Positions 31,069 through 50,959 are shown, counted from the first letter of the stretch. The stretch: 64,000 nucleotides of DNA from Escherichia coli (GCF_024700885.2 NZ_CP117016.1); one strand, 5' to 3'. Translations and numbers: made by a program. The notes: generated by a model from the sequence alone, not told the origin.

Positions 31069-32403
31069 GTCCGCAGCACCGCAAAAAGTTCCAGTTTCAC
31101 ATCTCCCAGCGATGCCGGGGTGTAGAAAGTACAACGCCCCGCGTCCAGCATCGCCCGGGCCGCATCCGTACTTAAATCCAGCGCGAAATACTGGTTTTCC
31201 AGCCGGAGCGGAATGGCCGCCGGTACATGCGTAACCGGACGGATAATGACCCCGCTCAGCGCCACATTCACCACCTCAGACACATCATCGGGGCTCCCGG
31301 CTTTGCATAGCTGCGGAAACTTCGTCTGCAGTTCATGCCCGGGCATGGAAGAGCGCACTGAAAGCCAGAAATCAGCCCCTTCGCGCAGACGCGCATCATG
31401 TAATGCCCCCTCCCACATCACACCCTTTTGTTTCAGTTCAATGAAAACCACACGGGAAGGCAGGCTTGCCTCCAGCAGCCGGTTCAGCAAAGAAAGCAAT
31501 GGTGGGAAAACATTTTCAGGTGTTTCATGATGGTATGCCGGAACCGCATCCACATTATGCTCAAGCGAGAATGTGAGCAGGGAGCCTGCCAGCCGGGCAA
31601 GCTCCCTGTACAACAGTTCCGGGTGGCGGTAAGGCATGTCAAGCAACTCTTTCAGAACAGGCTCCGCACTGTTCAGGGCATTCAGCAACCAGAACAACGA
31701 CACGTCCGCCACAGCAAAATCCGCAAGACGGGCATTGTTCTCCCGACGCATGGACATCAGTCGCTGGCGACGCGCCTGCAGGTGATGAAGCAACTCCGCA
31801 AGTTCAGTCATCAGCGAAGGACTGGCAGACAGCGTCAGCAGAGGGGGAATAAAACGCGGGTCCCTGCACCACTGTCCCTGTGCATCACGAACAAGACGGG
31901 TAACGGGACAGGTCAGCCAGGCAGCATTTTCCTGATGAGCCATGCGCAGAGTCAGGTTATGCCGCAATACCGCCACTTCGCTTTGCTCATGCCCGGCCAG
32001 CTCCTGCACATTCACCCTTTCTGATTTCCAGCGACGCGGACGCTCGCTCTCACTGCCATTATCAATGGTTGCCACCGTTAGCATTCAGTAACGGTAGTGC
32101 CAGCACAATATCCACCAGGGAACGATCAGAAACCGTCGATAAATCACAGACCGGAGGCAGATTATCCGCGCGTTCCGTATCAATAAGCGTTCCGTCCGGG
32201 AAACGAACAATCAGACGGGTGGCATTCAACCGTGAAAGCGGTAACAGAGAGTCATCAAACTCTGCAGCCACCACGCCCCATGGATGCGCCAGCCCCATTC
32301 TGGCAACGCTGTCTGCCAGATGAACATCCCAGGCAGCCTGCTGCTGAAACTGCTGGGGCATCAGAAAAGCCCCGTCTTCCCATAGTGGGCGATAAATCTT
32401 CAT
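31065..32403 (-). pseudogene. tssK: T6SS baseplate subunit TssK, reading frame broken near 32062-32084 (frameshift)
   Basis: N-terminal 113-aa ORF (MKIYRPLWEDGAFLMPQQFQQQ..., ends 32062) and C-terminal 339-aa ORF (from 32084) are in different frames and overlap by 23 nt; together they equal a normal TssK length. Confidence 0.6.
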
Positions 32404-42350: not shown

Positions 42351-43580
42351 AGTAACCTCACTACACACAGATATAAAAGCACTGCAATTCTGGCTATTAA
42401 TAGCAAAAATAGCAGTCAAATCAATATGAGGTAAAAATTTTTGTTGATTTAATGGTTAAATAATAACCACAGTGTGTTTTGCTGCTGAAGAAAGACAAAA
42501 TGAATCTGTGTGTCCCCTCCTTCCCTTCAGAGCACATCCACTATTCAAATTTTACACAACCACGTACGAACAAAAAGCATCATCCCGGGTATTGCAGATA
42601 CCGGTTTCCTGCCGGGATGAATCATAAACAGAACACCGGGAATAACGCCTTCAGGAATCCCCCCCCTCCTGAAGAAGAATAAAATAAAGAAGACTACATT
42701 TCCTGCACTGTATGCTGAGTACAATATTCTATGGACAGGATGACATATTTATAAATAACAAAAACCATTTAATACTGATACATCAATAAAATACTTCCTC
42801 CCTGCTGACGCAGATAAAATGCACCATTTTTTCTTCAAATACTTCTGTATAATCGCCAGCCAATGATGAGAATGGATTAAAATAACACTTCTTCGACAAA
42901 CACAAAAACAGCCTTCATTTTACATCATCATCCAGTTTCAGTTAACCCCGGACGAGCAACAGCGTTTCAGTACAGGAATTAAAAGCCAGCTTTTGCTCAG
43001 TAAAAACACACTCAACTAATAATATCTCAGCAGATATTATCCTGACCAGGACACCTCACATTACTGAATTCTCTTCCGACAGTATCACTGCACAAATAAA
43101 AAAGAACGGGATAAATATTCAGACCGGAAGAATGGTGTCACAAAAGCATTTAATCATTACGCATGACCAGGAAGGGAAACACTTAACCACATGGTATCAA
43201 CAGATATCATTACGTGTGCACTCTTATAAAAAACACACAGAAGAAGTAAGATAATTATAAATGTAAATTTAATATCTCCCACTGACATCTCCCCCACAAT
43301 ACACTGAAAAATACTCACAGCAGTAAACACAGACACACCTGATAATCATGCAGCCGATAAATATTTTCCCCTTTACGGAGAAATCAGCCTGCTGTTTAAC
43401 AATAACGGCGTATTTTCATGGAAGGAGATCACCCAGTAACGGATAAGTCCTGATCTCCTTCATGTTAATACGCAACAATCCCATCGATTAAAAACAATTT
43501 CAGACAGATATTATCTCCGTGAATCCCCCGCCACCTTTCCGGTGCGCGGGATTTTGTCTTTTTTCACCGGGAATACATGT

Positions 43581-44453: not shown

Positions 44454-44572
44454 ACACTCTGCCAGGGGAAATGCCTGATTATATTGCATTAACAAACTGA
44501 AAACATGACACAAACCCCTCATACTCCTCCTGTTTCTCTTGCGTGACCGCCTTGTCGTTAATAGAATAAAAC

Positions 44573-44608
44573 GATCGATAAAACAGGTATCGATCGCTAC
44601 TATCGATC
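44573..44608. promoter_or_regulatory. three closely spaced GATC sites: Dam/OxyR phase-variation switch of flu (agn43)
   Basis: GATC at 44573-44576, 44592-44595, 44605-44608, ~220 bp upstream of the Ag43 start. Confidence 0.7.
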
Positions 44609-44825
44609 GTTTATAGTGGTTAATGGCCTGCGAAAAGGCAGCTGAATCTCTTCATCATGCAGAACGGAATTGCACACAACGGACTGATACTTCTCTGGCG
44701 GATGAGAGAGGGGAAGCATTTATGTCCGGGAAAAACCACTTTATCTGACCATGCTGTTTTGTACCTGCCGGTATCCACATTTGTGGGTACCGGCTTTTTT
44801 ATTCACCCTCTGTAAGGAAAAGCTG

Positions 44826-47672
44826 ATGAAACGACATCTGAACACCAGCTACAGGCTGGTATGGAATCACATTACGGGTACCCTGGTGGTGGCCTCCGAA
44901 CTGGCCCGCTCACGGGGAAAACGCGCCGGTGTGGCGATTGCGCTGTCTCTTGCTGCTGTCACATCAGTCCCGGCACTGGCTGCTGACACGGTTGTACAGG
45001 CGGGAGAAACCGTGAGCGGCGGAACACTGACAAATCATGACAACCAGATTGTTCTCGGTACGGCCAACGGAATGACCATCAGTACCGGTCTGGAGTATGG
45101 GCCGGATAACGAGGCCAATACCGGCGGGCAATGGGTACAGGATGGCGGCACAGCCAGTAATACCGCCATCAGCAGCGGCGGTCTCCAGTTTGTAGGTGCC
45201 GGGGGAAAGGCTACAGACACAATAATCAATGAAGGAGGCGGACAAAGTCTGAAGGGACTGGCACTGAACACCACGCTGAATGGTGGCGAGCAGTGGATGC
45301 ATGAGGGTGCGATAGCCACAGGAACCGTCATTAATGATAAGGGCTGGCAGGTCGTCAAATCCGGCGCAATGGCAACCGACACGGTTGTGAATACCGGCGC
45401 GGAAGGGGGACCGGATGCAGAAAATGGTGATACCGGGCAGTTTGTTCGCGGAAATGCCGTACGTACCACCATCAATAAAAATGGTCGTCAGATTGTGGCT
45501 GCTGAAGGAACAGCAAATACCACTATGGTTTATGCCGGCGGAGACCAGACTGTACATGGCTACGCGCTGGATACCACACTGAACGGCGGTAACCAGTATG
45601 TGCACAACGGCGGTACAGCGTCTGACACTGTTGTTAACAGTGACGGCTGGCAGGTGGTGAAGGATGGTGCAGTGGCTGAGAATACCACCGTTAATCACAA
45701 GGGCAAACTGCAGGTGAATGCCGGTGGTGTCGCTGTTGATGTTACTCAGAATCAGGGAGGGGCACTGGTTACCAGTACTGCTGCAACGGTTCTTGGCAGC
45801 AACCGTCTGGGCAATTTCGCGGTGGAAAACGGTAAGGCTGACGGCGTGGTTCTGGAATCCGGTGGTCGCCTGGATGTACTGGAGAGCCATTCAGCACAGA
45901 ATACCCTGGTGGATGACGGCGGTACCCTGGCAGTGTCTGCCGGTGGTAAGGCAACAGGTGTCACCATGACATCCGGTGGTGCCCTGATAGCAGACAGTGG
46001 TGCCACTGTTGAGGGTACCAATGCCAGCGGCAAGTTCAGTATTGATGGCATATCCGGTCAGGCCAGCGGCCTGCTGCTGGAAAATGGCGGCAGCTTTACG
46101 GTCAATGCCGGGGGACAAGCCAGCAACACCACGATCGGACATCGTGGAACACTGACGCTGGCTGCCGGGGGAAGTCTGAGTGGCAGAACACAACTCAGTA
46201 AAGGCGCCAGTATGGTACTGAATGGTGATGTGGTCAGTACCGGCGATATTGTTAACGCAGGGGAGATTCGCTTTGATAATCAGACGACACAGGATGCCGT
46301 GCTGAGCCGTGCTGTTGCAAAAGGCGACGCCCCGGTAACGTTCCATAAACTGACCACCAATAACCTCACCGGCCAGGGCGGCACCATCAATATGCGTGTT
46401 CGCCTTGATGGCAGCAATGCCTCTGACCAGCTGGTGATTAATGGTGGTCAGGCAACCGGCAAAACCTGGCTTGCGTTTACAAATGTCGGAAACAGTAACC
46501 TCGGGGTGGCAACCACCGGACAGGGTATCCGGGTTGTGGATGCACAGAATGGTGCCACCACAGAAGAAGGTGCATTTGCCCTGAGCCGCCCGCTTCAGGC
46601 CGGCGCCTTTAACTACACCCTGAACCGTGACAGCGATGAAGACTGGTACCTGCGCAGTGAAAATGCTTATCGTGCTGAAGTCCCCCTGTATGCCTCCATG
46701 CTGACACAGGCAATGGACTATGACCGGATTCTGGCAGGCTCCCGCAGCCATCAGACCGGTGTAAACGGTGAAAATAACAGCGTCCGTCTCAGCATTCAGG
46801 GCGGTCATCTCGGTCACGATAACAACGGCGGTATTGCCCGTGGAGCCACGCCGGAAAGCAGCGGCAGCTATGGCTTCGTCCGTCTGGAGGGTGACCTGCT
46901 CAGAACAGAGGTCGCCGGTATGTCTGTGACCGCGGGGGTATATGGTGCTGCTGGCCATTCTTCCGTTGATGTTAAGGATGATGACGGTTCCCGCGCCGGC
47001 ACGGTCCGGGATGATGCCGGCAGCCTGGGCGGATACCTGAATCTGGTACACACGTCCTCCGGCCTGTGGGCTGACATTGTGGCACAGGGAACCCGCCACA
47101 GCATGAAAGCGTCATCGGACAATAACAACTTCCGCGCCCGGGGCCGGGGCTGGCTGGGCTCACTGGAAACCGGTCTGCCCTTCAGTATCACTGACAACCT
47201 GATGCTGGAGCCACAACTGCAGTACACCTGGCAGGGGCTCTCCCTGGATGACGGCCAGGATAACGCCGGTTATGTGAAGTTCGGGCATGGCAGTACACAA
47301 CATGTGCGTGCCGGCTTCCGTCTGGGCAGCCACAACGATATGACCTTTGGCGAAGGCACCTCATCCCGTGACACCCTGCGCGACAGTACAAAACACCGTG
47401 TGAGTGAACTGCCGGTGAACTGGTGGGTACAGCCTTCTGTTATCCGCACTTTCAGCTCCCGGGGTGACATGAGCATGGGTACAGCCGCCGCCAGCAGTAA
47501 CATGACGTTCTCACCGTCCCGGAATGGCACGTCACTGGACCTGCAGGCCGGACTGGAAGCCCGTGTCCGGGAAAATATCACCCTGGGCGTTCAGGCCGGT
47601 TATGCCCACAGCGTCAGCGGCAGCAGCGCTGAAGGCTATAACGGTCAGGCCACGCTGAGTGTGACCTTCTGA
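44826..47672 (+). CDS. flu: antigen 43 self-associating autotransporter adhesin
   Basis: MKRHLNTSYRLVWNHITGTLVVASELARSRGKRAGVAIALSLAAVTSVPALAADTVV... extended signal peptide, beta-helix repeats, C-terminal beta-barrel. Confidence 0.9.
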   Translation: MKRHLNTSYRLVWNHITGTLVVASELARSRGKRAGVAIALSLAAVTSVPALAADTVVQAGETVSGGTLTNHDNQIVLGTANGMTISTGLEYGPDNEANTGGQWVQDGGTASNTAISSGGLQFVGAGGKATDTIINEGGGQSLKGLALNTTLNGGEQWMHEGAIATGTVINDKGWQVVKSGAMATDTVVNTGAEGGPDAENGDTGQFVRGNAVRTTINKNGRQIVAAEGTANTTMVYAGGDQTVHGYALDTTLNGGNQYVHNGGTASDTVVNSDGWQVVKDGAVAENTTVNHKGKLQVNAGGVAVDVTQNQGGALVTSTAATVLGSNRLGNFAVENGKADGVVLESGGRLDVLESHSAQNTLVDDGGTLAVSAGGKATGVTMTSGGALIADSGATVEGTNASGKFSIDGISGQASGLLLENGGSFTVNAGGQASNTTIGHRGTLTLAAGGSLSGRTQLSKGASMVLNGDVVSTGDIVNAGEIRFDNQTTQDAVLSRAVAKGDAPVTFHKLTTNNLTGQGGTINMRVRLDGSNASDQLVINGGQATGKTWLAFTNVGNSNLGVATTGQGIRVVDAQNGATTEEGAFALSRPLQAGAFNYTLNRDSDEDWYLRSENAYRAEVPLYASMLTQAMDYDRILAGSRSHQTGVNGENNSVRLSIQGGHLGHDNNGGIARGATPESSGSYGFVRLEGDLLRTEVAGMSVTAGVYGAAGHSSVDVKDDDGSRAGTVRDDAGSLGGYLNLVHTSSGLWADIVAQGTRHSMKASSDNNNFRARGRGWLGSLETGLPFSITDNLMLEPQLQYTWQGLSLDDGQDNAGYVKFGHGSTQHVRAGFRLGSHNDMTFGEGTSSRDTLRDSTKHRVSELPVNWWVQPSVIRTFSSRGDMSMGTAAASSNMTFSPSRNGTSLDLQAGLEARVRENITLGVQAGYAHSVSGSSAEGYNGQATLSVTF

Positions 47673-47786: not shown

Positions 47787-50309
47787 GTGACTATGTTACA
47801 GATAGTCGGCGCGCTGATCCTGCTGATCGCAGGATTTGCCATTCTTCGCCTTTTGTTCAGAGCATTAATCAGCACGGCTTCTGCGCTGGCAGGGCTCATA
47901 TTGCTGTGTCTGTTCGGCCCGGCCTTACTGGCTGGCTATATCACCGAACGCATAACCCGGTTGTTCCATATTCGCTGGCTGGCAGGCGTATTTCTGACGA
48001 TTGCCGGAATGATCATCAGCTTCATGTGGGGACTTGATGGTAAACATATCGCGCTGGAGGCTCACACCTTTGACTCTGTGAAATTTATTCTGACCACCGC
48101 TCTCGCCGGTGGTCTGCTGGCTGTTCCCCTGCAGATCAAAAACATTCAGCAGAACGGGATCACACCAGAAGATATCAGCAAGGAAATTAACGGGTATTAC
48201 TGCTGTTTTTATACTGCCTTTTTCCTTATGGCGTGTTCTGCATGCGCACCATTGATCGCGTTACAGTACGATATTTCACCGTCACTGATGTGGTGGGGCG
48301 GGTTGTTGTACTGGCTGGCTGCATTAGTGACGCTGCTATGGGCGGCCAGCCAAATCCAGGCGCTGAAAAAACTGACCTGTGCCATCAGCCAGACACTGGA
48401 AGAACAACCGGTGCTCAACAGTAAATCGTGGCTGACCAGTTTGCAAAACGATTACAGCCTTCCTGACTCACTGACGGAGCGCATCTGGCTGACGCTCATT
48501 TCTCAACGGATTTCCCGGGGAGAGCTGAGGGAATTTGAACTGGCAGACGGAAACTGGTTACTGAACAATGCCTGGTATGAAAGAAACATGGCAGGGTTTA
48601 ACGAACAGTTGAAAGAGAACCTGTCATTCACACCTGATGAACTGAAAACGCTCTTCCGGAACCGCCTGAATTTATCACCGGAAGCGAATGACGATTTTCT
48701 CGATCGTTGCCTGGACGGCGGTGACTGGTATCCCTTTTCAGAAGGTCGCCGTTTTGTATCATTCCATCACGTGGATGAGCTTCGTATCTGTGCCTCCTGC
48801 GGGCTGACAGAAGTACATCATGCCCCGGAAAATCATAAGCCGGATCCGGAATGGTACTGCTCCTCTCTTTGTCGCGAAACAGAAACACTGTGTCAGGAAA
48901 TTTATGAACGCCCTTACAACAGCTTTATTTCCGATGCAACGGCGAATGGTCTGATTCTCATGAAACTGCCGGAAACCTGGAGTACAAATGAGAAAATGTT
49001 TGCTTCCGGAGGGCAGGGACATGGGTTTGCCGCTGAACGGGGAAACCATATTGTCGACAGAGTCCGTCTGAAAAACGCACGGATCCTCGGTGATAATAAT
49101 GCCAGAAATGGAGCAGACAGACTGGTCAGCGGAACAGAAATCCAGACGAAATATTGTTCAACTGCAGCCCGTAGCGTCGGTGCGGCATTCGACGGACAAA
49201 ACGGACAGTATCGTTACATGGGAAATAATGGCCCCATGCAACTGGAAGTCCCCCGTGATCAGTATGCCGGCGCTGTTGAAACCATGAGGAATAAGATCCG
49301 CGAAGGTAAAGTACCCGGTGTAACCGATCCCGCAGAAGCATCCCGGCTGATTCGTCGGGGACATCTGACTTATACTCAGGCCCGTAATATCACCCGGTTC
49401 GGGACCATCGAATCGGTCACTTATGATATTGCCGAGGGTTCGGTTGTCAGTCTGGCGGCCGGAGGGATCAGTTTTGCCCTGACGGCATCGGTCTTCTGGC
49501 TCAGCACCGGCGATCGCGATGCTGCCCTGCAGACAGCTGCTGTCCAGGCAGGAAAAACCTTCACCCGCACACTGGCTGTCTACGTCACAACCCAGCAACT
49601 CCACCGGCTCAGTGTTGTTCAGGGTATGCTGAAGCACATTGATTTTTCGACTGCCAGCCCGGCTGTTCGACTGGCTCTTCAGAAGGGGACCGGTGCAGGA
49701 AATATCAGTGCCCTGAACAAAGTGATGAAGGGTACGCTGGTGACATCTCTGGCACTGGTAGCTGTCACAACCGGCCCTGACATGATCAAAATGTTGCGGG
49801 GACGGATCTCCGGTACGCAGTTCATCAGGAATCTTGCCGTGGCATCTTCCGGTGTGGCAGGTGGTGCTGTCGGGTCAGTGGCGGGCGGAATACTGTTCAG
49901 TCCACTGGGACCATTTGGTGCACTGACAGGGCGTGTGGTTGGCGGTGTTCTGGGGGGAATGATTGCCTCCGCTGTATCAGGAAAAATTGCCGGAGCGCTG
50001 GTTGAAGAAGATCGCGTCAAAATTCTGGCAATGATTCAGGAGCAGGTGACATGGCTTGCCGGCAGTTTCCTGCTGACCGGACATGAGATTGAAAATCTGA
50101 ACGAGAATCTGGCCCGTGTTATCGATCAGAATGCTCTGGAGATCATTTTCGCCGCCGGTATACAACAACGGGCCGCGACCAATATGTTAATCAAACCACT
50201 GGTGGTCAGTATCATCAGGCAACGCCCCGTCATGGAATATGATGCATCCCATCTCGGCAATATGGTTAACCGACTGGAAGAAGCATTACCCCCGGAGTTA
50301 CCGGCATAA
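47787..50309 (+). CDS. yeeR: CP4-44-type inner-membrane protein (YeeR-like), 840 aa
   Basis: Multiple N-terminal TM helices; position directly downstream of flu as in CP4-44. Confidence 0.6.
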   Translation: MTMLQIVGALILLIAGFAILRLLFRALISTASALAGLILLCLFGPALLAGYITERITRLFHIRWLAGVFLTIAGMIISFMWGLDGKHIALEAHTFDSVKFILTTALAGGLLAVPLQIKNIQQNGITPEDISKEINGYYCCFYTAFFLMACSACAPLIALQYDISPSLMWWGGLLYWLAALVTLLWAASQIQALKKLTCAISQTLEEQPVLNSKSWLTSLQNDYSLPDSLTERIWLTLISQRISRGELREFELADGNWLLNNAWYERNMAGFNEQLKENLSFTPDELKTLFRNRLNLSPEANDDFLDRCLDGGDWYPFSEGRRFVSFHHVDELRICASCGLTEVHHAPENHKPDPEWYCSSLCRETETLCQEIYERPYNSFISDATANGLILMKLPETWSTNEKMFASGGQGHGFAAERGNHIVDRVRLKNARILGDNNARNGADRLVSGTEIQTKYCSTAARSVGAAFDGQNGQYRYMGNNGPMQLEVPRDQYAGAVETMRNKIREGKVPGVTDPAEASRLIRRGHLTYTQARNITRFGTIESVTYDIAEGSVVSLAAGGISFALTASVFWLSTGDRDAALQTAAVQAGKTFTRTLAVYVTTQQLHRLSVVQGMLKHIDFSTASPAVRLALQKGTGAGNISALNKVMKGTLVTSLALVAVTTGPDMIKMLRGRISGTQFIRNLAVASSGVAGGAVGSVAGGILFSPLGPFGALTGRVVGGVLGGMIASAVSGKIAGALVEEDRVKILAMIQEQVTWLAGSFLLTGHEIENLNENLARVIDQNALEIIFAAGIQQRAATNMLIKPLVVSIIRQRPVMEYDASHLGNMVNRLEEALPPELPA

Positions 50310-50922: not shown

Positions 50923-50959
50923 GTAAGCGTGCAGCAAGAACCGTATTGACGGGGATGTG

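Follow-up and report, generated by a model that had tools for sequence, protein, structure and literature searches.

Ageorges et al. 2019 (PMC6668479) divided the passengers of Ag43 into SL, EJ, and BL subdomains. They distinguished subfamily I (classes C1 and C3), with a passenger of about 500 aa, from subfamily II (C2 and C4), with a passenger of about 430 aa. The two subfamilies differ mainly in having BL1 or BL2, a difference of 53 aa, and the class structure was ascribed to shuffling of the subdomains. The scheme grew to six classes with Ageorges et al. 2023 (PMC10058404), who gave BL1 as 143 aa and BL2 as 90 aa and found that EJ1-BL1 is always paired with one type of autochaperone (AC) and EJ2-BL2 with another. 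Vo et al. 2022 (PMC8993888) described the structures of Ag43 from UTI89 (7KO9) and of Ag43/Cah from EDL933 (7KOH). The alpha-domains of these two proteins are 69 aa shorter than that of Ag43a, and structures with the short module have four beta-helix rungs in the bottom arm, while the long type has seven. Modules are shuffled among Ag43 alleles by recombination, and this mosaicism is documented in the literature. The phenomenon is already known at the sequence, phylogenetic, and structural levels.

An Ag43 allele in a 64,000-nucleotide stretch of Escherichia coli DNA (the window)

The window contains a gene of the Ag43/Cah family of autotransporter adhesins. The gene is identical in E. coli MLI114 (NZ_CP117013.1), where PGAP labels its product as a 948-aa "Ag43/Cah family autotransporter adhesin" (WP_151298310.1). 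The whole window corresponds to positions 830505-894504 of that sequence, on the reverse strand, with a single difference in the length of one poly-C. MLI114 has four agn43-like loci, counted as places found by BLAST. The gene and the parts of its product are:

44826-47672, + strand: agn43, encoding an Ag43/Cah family autotransporter adhesin of 948 aa, plus the stop codon
44826-44981, + strand: extended signal peptide (ESPR), aa 1-52, ending in ...VPALA before the mature ADTVV; PF13018 covers aa 6-49
44982-45746, + strand: SL stem, aa 53-307, the part compared with published class representatives
45747-46001, + strand: EJ subdomain (elbow), aa 308-392, type EJ2, with boundaries as in the rows of Table S1 of PMC10058404 that we used; it contains the conserved VVLESGGRLDVL rung
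46002-46271, + strand: BL subdomain (bottom arm of the L), aa 393-482, type BL2, 90 aa against the 143 aa of BL1 in K-12
46272-46625, + strand: linker loop and autochaperone, aa 483-600, with Pfam AC_1 at aa 488-599; the other of the two sites where the lengths differ
46626-47669, + strand: alpha-helical linker and beta-barrel translocator, aa 601-948, with PF03797 at aa 674-924

The protein matches the Ag43/Cah equivalog NF033177 of NCBIfam with 1946.9 bits (the cutoff is 1200), over positions 1-948 of the model's 948. The length of the model is thus the length of the protein. The Pfam set is complete, with ESPR (PF13018), five stretches of AIDA (PF16168), AC_1 (PF18883), and the autotransporter beta-domain (PF03797), all above their gathering thresholds. 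This is the modular layout of type Va: an ESPR signal peptide, a beta-helical passenger of AIDA repeats, a type 1 autochaperone, and a C-terminal beta-barrel. Within this analysis, we found no evidence that contradicts the identification as Ag43.

The protein also has the features of subfamily II: its BL2 measures 90 aa, the published boundaries give it a passenger of 430 aa, and its AC is of the matching type. It does not belong to subfamily I (the K-12 Flu type, C1 and C3), because its BL, at 90 aa, shares just 46-47% identity with those of K-12 Flu, Ag43a, and Ag43b. We put at about 95% the probability that the window carries an intact agn43 allele, subject to phase variation, that belongs to the short subfamily SF-II (Ag43/Cah type) and, within it, to the rare class C5.

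Three sets of characterized relatives are useful for comparison. Ag43 from UTI89 (C4 in the 2019/2022 nomenclature) has the same short architecture and a nearly identical EJ2-BL2-AC module, but its SL differs at about aa 104-146 and about aa 276-312, which are the patches that define SL1b/SL1c versus the UTI89 type. Cah/Ag43 from EHEC O157:H7 EDL933 (C2) is also of the short form (949 aa), with 98% identity in BL and 97% in the linker and AC; its SL, however, belongs to the other major type (SL2a), is 68% identical, and is one residue longer. K-12 Flu (b2000; C1) and CFT073 Ag43a and Ag43b (C3) belong to the same family and share the ESPR, the promoter, the GATC triplet, and a barrel that is 92-95% identical. 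But they are 1039-1040 aa, with an EJ1-BL1-AC of the other type that makes them 91-92 aa longer across BL, linker, and AC, and their bottom arms have seven rungs instead of four. The gene upstream of agn43 encodes a GTPase in the window and at the K-12 Flu, Ag43a, and Ag43b loci alike. Downstream, the window has the same set of genes as CFT073 (a large membrane protein, IrmA, DUF905, DUF932, antirestriction, and JAB), whereas K-12 has only a shorter YeeR and then the JAB-domain protein YeeS.

Location of the length difference from K-12 Flu

The initial annotation put the open reading frame at about 948 codons from MKRHL, gave K-12 Ag43 as about 1039 aa, and suggested an allelic variant with fewer passenger repeats. 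The frame is indeed 948 codons, from the ATG at 44826 to the stop codon TGA at 47670-47672 in the ORF list of the window, and flu (b2000) is 3120 bp and encodes 1039 aa. The allele is therefore shorter than the K-12 protein, by exactly 91 aa. The idea of fewer repeats holds in part: the passenger is shorter, with four bottom-arm rungs against seven in crystal structures of proteins that have this module, but the cause is a swap of modules instead of a loss of repeats, and only 69 of the 91 aa are in the passenger.

We aligned the protein with K-12 Flu, CFT073 Ag43a (1040 aa), CFT073 Ag43b (1039 aa), and two short alleles. Lengths were unequal, and the indel lies opposite aa 393-600: every additional residue of the three long proteins falls there. 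Over these positions, identity to the long proteins is 46-56%, versus 95-98% to the two short alleles. By segment, the alignment gave:

Signal peptide, aa 1-52: 81-88% identity to the three long proteins; no change in length
SL stem, aa 53-307: 84% to K-12 and 61-65% to Ag43a/b; no change in length (Ag43a has one more residue)
EJ elbow, aa 308-392: 71-72% to the long proteins and 89-93% to the short alleles; no change in length
BL, aa 393-482: 46-47% to the long proteins and 98% to the short alleles; 90 aa opposite 128 aa in the alignment
Linker and autochaperone, aa 483-600: 54-56% to the long proteins and 95-97% to the short alleles; 118 aa opposite 171 aa
Linker helix and barrel, aa 601-948: 92-95% to the long proteins; no change in length

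At the nucleotide level, identity to K-12 is about 90%, falls to 33-64% across about aa 332-600, and then returns to 91-98%. The gaps in the divergent part are many and scattered, without a single clean junction. In the rows of Table S1 of PMC10058404 that we used, K-12 is divided into 52 + 499 + 488 residues and the short alleles into 52 + 430 + 466. By those boundaries, 69 of the 91 aa belong to the passenger and the other 22 to the translocation unit, in its linker/autochaperone region. By the alignments, aa 393-600 are a replaced, diverged module and not the result of a loss of repeat copies from a K-12-type gene. The EJ2-BL2-AC module, in place of EJ1-BL1-AC, accounts for the 91 aa that the protein lacks relative to K-12 Flu.

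Solved structures and AlphaFold 2 (AF2) models show what the difference amounts to. The best sequence matches in PDB were 7KO9 (no gaps) and 7KOH (one 1-residue gap), both over aa 52-613, followed by 4KH3 (Ag43a) and 7KOB (Ag43b). Past the first rung of the elbow, which is conserved, the AF2 model of the window protein has 15 strands, with the end of the main helix near residue 432 (model numbering). The K-12 model has 22 strands past that rung, ending at about residue 490, so the main helix of the window model stops about 58 residues earlier. A low-confidence loop in the window model (435-451) corresponds to an 18-residue loop (434-451) that is undefined in the UTI89 crystal, and in the EDL933 crystal as well (PMC8993888). 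With Foldseek, the top match of the window model was 7KO9, with a TM of 0.53 and an rmsd of 17 A. Given this TM, and given that the bend or elbow angle of the crystal was not reproduced, we used the AF2 models for strand counts only. (The K-12 model has pLDDT below 50 after residue 496, because its alignment contained one long-type sequence.) Overall, compared with EJ1-BL1-AC, the EJ2-BL2-AC module has about three fewer rungs in its bottom arm, and its linker/autochaperone stretch is shorter.

Class of the stem and prevalence of the short module

To assign a class, we relied on the identity of SL to five published C5 representatives instead of on a split network (SplitsTree). In the rows of Table S1 that were compared, these identities were:

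VAEP_654.16 (C5): 99.2% (2 of 255 residues differ)
Four other C5 representatives: 94-97%
The C4 representative: 90%, the next best after C5 among the representatives compared
Four C6 representatives: 84-86%
K-12 (C1): 83.5%
EDL933-like (C2): 68%, taken from the protein alignment above

Two motifs from the last third of SL, AENTTVNHKGKLQVNAGG and VAVDVTQNQGGALV, each occur in four sequences among the Table S1 rows listed. Both are present in the three C5 rows that we examined in full and in the passages shown. Because SL is closest to the C5 representatives and carries these motifs, we assign the allele, by its sequence, to class C5 (SL1c + EJ2-BL2). Class C6 (SL1a + EJ2-BL2) had been suspected from the K-12-like SL and was rejected, since identities in the rows compared were 84-86% to C6 versus 94-99% to C5. 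According to its row in Table S1, VAEP_654.16 is also 948 aa and has an identical 52-aa signal peptide. The EJ of 85 aa, the BL of 90 aa, and the start of the translocation unit (FDNQTTQDAV...) in the window protein agree with the boundaries and lengths given for C5 in that part of the table. The two differences from VAEP_654.16 in SL are S179/P and M182/V (precursor numbering), where the window residues are of the C6/UTI89 type, again among the rows compared.

C5 is the rarest class, with 0.3% of Ag43 sequences (PMC10058404). Consistent with this, a C5-specific patch of 303 nt (45498-45800) was found at 95% identity or above in 34 of 5426 complete genomes; the next band of matches was at 93% or below.

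The short module is far from rare. The EJ2-BL2 DNA segment of the window was found with at least 90% identity in 2970 of 5426 complete E. coli genomes (4046 places), and the EJ1-BL1 segment of K-12 in 2405 of the 5426 (3074 places). Of the two forms, the short one is thus more common. A single 948-aa cluster in the protein database comprises 26,437 sequences, and of the 120 matches listed, 113 are 949 aa. We conclude that 948 aa is the standard length of Ag43 subfamily II and that the shortness of this protein is ordinary, not an anomaly.

Predicted phase variation and self-association, and alternative explanations

In K-12 agn43, the region of the GATC triplet is a Dam/OxyR phase-variation switch. 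The corresponding features upstream of the window's gene are:

44539-44567, + strand: predicted agn43 promoter, with a -35 box TTGCGT (44539-44544), a 17-nt spacer, and a -10 box TAGAAT (44562-44567)
44571-44807, + strand: 5' leader, matched by Rfam IS102 (RF00124) with 72.5 bits (gathering cutoff 46) over model positions 1-206
44573-44608, no strand: three Dam GATC sites, starting at 44573, 44592, and 44605; the presumed OxyR-binding/Dam-methylation switch
44814-44819, + strand: Shine-Dalgarno sequence AAGGAA, 6 nt 5' of the ATG and kept in K-12 and in both CFT073 alleles

We placed the promoter by homology with K-12. TAGAAT is 11 nt 5' of the first GATC, and this arrangement is shared with K-12, CFT073 Ag43a, and CFT073 Ag43b, so conservation suggests that 44539-44567 acts as the promoter. 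A generic promoter scan did not flag the site at 44539-44567. By a count of coordinates, the GATC sites are spaced by 19 and 13 nt, as in K-12 flu, Ag43a, and Ag43b. (A MAFFT alignment of the upstream region had shown a 13-nt insertion between the GATC sites, along with low identity; since the spacing equals that of K-12 by direct count, we regard this as an alignment artefact.) With the GATC triplet and the -10 box intact, expression should be phase-variable. IS102 in Rfam represents the IsrC region, which lies upstream of flu. Compared with that of K-12, the leader has 31 additional nt; it contains a terminator-like hairpin (44767-44794) followed by a run of T; the hairpin and the last ~80 nt of the leader are nearly identical to K-12.

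By homology to type Va autotransporters, the 52-aa extended signal peptide, which has the same sequence in the class C5 representative among the rows of Table S1 used, would direct export through Sec. The C-terminal beta-barrel would then insert in the outer membrane and thread the passenger to the surface, where the autochaperone would nucleate folding upward into an L-shaped beta-helix. Between neighbouring cells, SL stems of this protein would bind one another head-to-tail, which would lead to clumping and biofilm. Such self-association of stems is established for Ag43a, Ag43b, and the UTI89 and EDL933 proteins (PMC8993888). The single interface of Ag43-UTI89, confirmed by experiment, involves nine residues, all of them kept in the window protein (G13, G30, T32, N60, D79, T80, T98, N100, and N137 in mature numbering). 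D133 and R161 are kept as well; these two were suggested to prevent a double interface (PMC8993888). The conservation of these residues suggests a UTI89-like, comparatively weak aggregation through a single interface, and we infer secretion and phase variation along with it. The aggregation strength and partner specificity that we predict are extrapolated from the UTI89 protein, to which SL is only ~85-90% identical.

Could the protein be an intact adhesin of a different kind, for instance a Cah-like calcium-binding or host-binding protein, instead of a self-aggregation factor? Close relatives are named "calcium-binding autotransporter Cah" in databases, and neither C5 nor C6 has any characterized member (PMC10058404). 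But the Cah of EDL933 is itself an Ag43 of class C2, with an extensive double interface and strong aggregation (PMC8993888); self-association was seen in all classes tested so far (PMC6668479); and the window protein has every interface residue proven for UTI89. Because Cah itself is an aggregating Ag43, we consider a different function unlikely. Nor does the short length point to a gene other than an intact agn43. A recent internal deletion in a K-12-type 1039-aa gene, with tandem beta-helix repeats lost by slippage or by recombination between repeats, is conceivable in that the passenger is made of repetitive rungs (the five AIDA matches) and repeat recombination does alter length: P0001 is a short-type allele with a 91-aa internal tandem duplication. 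But the sequence near the gaps does not resemble K-12: nucleotide identity there is 33-64% (over about aa 332-600) and protein identity to the long proteins over BL, linker, and AC is 46-56%. We also looked for near-identity of the flanking EJ and AC to BL1-type alleles, as expected for a recent origin from such a gene, and did not see it. The short module is a long-established lineage, documented as EJ2-BL2 and present at 90% identity or above in the 2970 genomes. Given the diverged flanking sequence and the wide distribution of the module, we reject a recent deletion as very improbable.

An artefact of annotation or reading (a wrong start codon, a truncation, or a pseudogene) is harder still to credit. 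The open frame in a mechanical ORF call does begin upstream, at the ATG at 44751, and runs to 47672 on the + strand, which would give 973 aa. But the 25 codons before MKRHL sit within the conserved 5' leader and span its hairpin, while the MKRHL start is common to K-12 Flu, CFT073 Ag43a, and CFT073 Ag43b and is preceded by the conserved AAGGAA. PGAP also used this start in MLI114, and on these observations we reject the ATG at 44751 as the genuine start. The end-to-end match to the curated family model, along with the conserved start context, leads us to reject an artefact; the beta-barrel is intact and there are no internal stops.

Taking the gene as an intact class C5 allele, we can ask what its stem might do. 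The stem patches at about aa 104-146 are shared with C4, and those at about aa 276-312 are private to C5. It is possible, though we hold this only tentatively, that these patches give C5 proteins a recognition specificity or aggregation strength of their own, so that their carriers would clump preferentially with each other or with carriers of C4. If so, MLI114 could display several recognition "codes" under independent phase variation.

For the family, these results mean that K-12 Flu is unsuitable as the reference length for Ag43: the form of 948 or 949 aa is a separate and commoner type of module, with solved structures. Beyond correct annotation, the importance of this is slight, and the allele is of mild interest only as a member of the rare class C5. 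As such, this copy is a ready-made, intact C5 candidate, with its native phase-variation region, for extending structure-function work on Ag43.

The window in MLI114 and the type VI secretion cluster

E. coli MLI114, which originates from human stool in Mali, is a 100% match across window positions 1-64000 (NZ_CP117013.1 830505-894504, reverse strand). The sole difference between the window and this RefSeq record is in a poly-C run at 42659-42666, which is C8 in the window and C7 in RefSeq. This run is intergenic, with a yfjI-family gene on one side and a GTPase gene on the other.

At about 1-34500, upstream of the Ag43 island, the window carries a type VI secretion cluster that is complete and belongs to the EAEC Sci-1 type. 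Among its genes are tssA-M, hcp, vgrG, and those for PAAR and for the phospholipase effector-immunity pair Tle1/Tli1. The annotation of the identical RefSeq record describes tssK (at about 31065-32403) as frameshifted.

The surroundings of agn43

The 5' leader of agn43 (44571-44825) is 31 nt longer than the K-12 leader. Its middle part has diverged strongly from K-12; conservation is seen in the region with three GATC (Dam) sites and in the final ~80 nt, which contain the hairpin.

Directly 3' of agn43 is an ORF of 840 amino acids (47787-50309), which RefSeq labels "hypothetical protein" and whose N-terminus is predicted to be a multi-pass membrane region. YeeR from K-12 has just 510 amino acids, so the ORF in the window is far longer. 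In CFT073, a counterpart of this ORF is present behind both copies of agn43 and is followed by irmA. In the window, irmA is separated from the DUF905 gene by an inserted IS66-family element (tnpA/B/C; 50957-53274).

Further along the island, at ~56539-57374, is a toxin-antitoxin pair of the YeeU/CbtA type. The annotation places an internal stop in the antitoxin gene, and the gene for the CbtA-family toxin is intact. The same pattern is found in CFT073, beside Ag43b (C_RS29770). A DUF4942 gene is interrupted by the IS21-like element ISEc10 (~58670-60920), and the end of the island adjoins the capsule genes kpsF, E, D, and U, which start at about 62431.

Copies and lengths of Ag43

Using BLAST, we found four agn43-like places in the genome of MLI114, three of which have the short EJ2-BL2 module. 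Only 2.6% of Escherichia genomes contain four copies of agn43 (PMC10058404).

Outside the window, protein P0001 (from a single contig in ENA) is a short-type Ag43 with an internal tandem duplication of 91 amino acids; the duplicated unit, LEGHSARKT...GHRGT, is present twice. The duplication brings the total to 1039 amino acids, which equals the length of Flu from K-12 by coincidence. Because P0001 is of the short type yet is as long as K-12 Flu, the subfamily of an Ag43 protein is not identifiable from its length alone.
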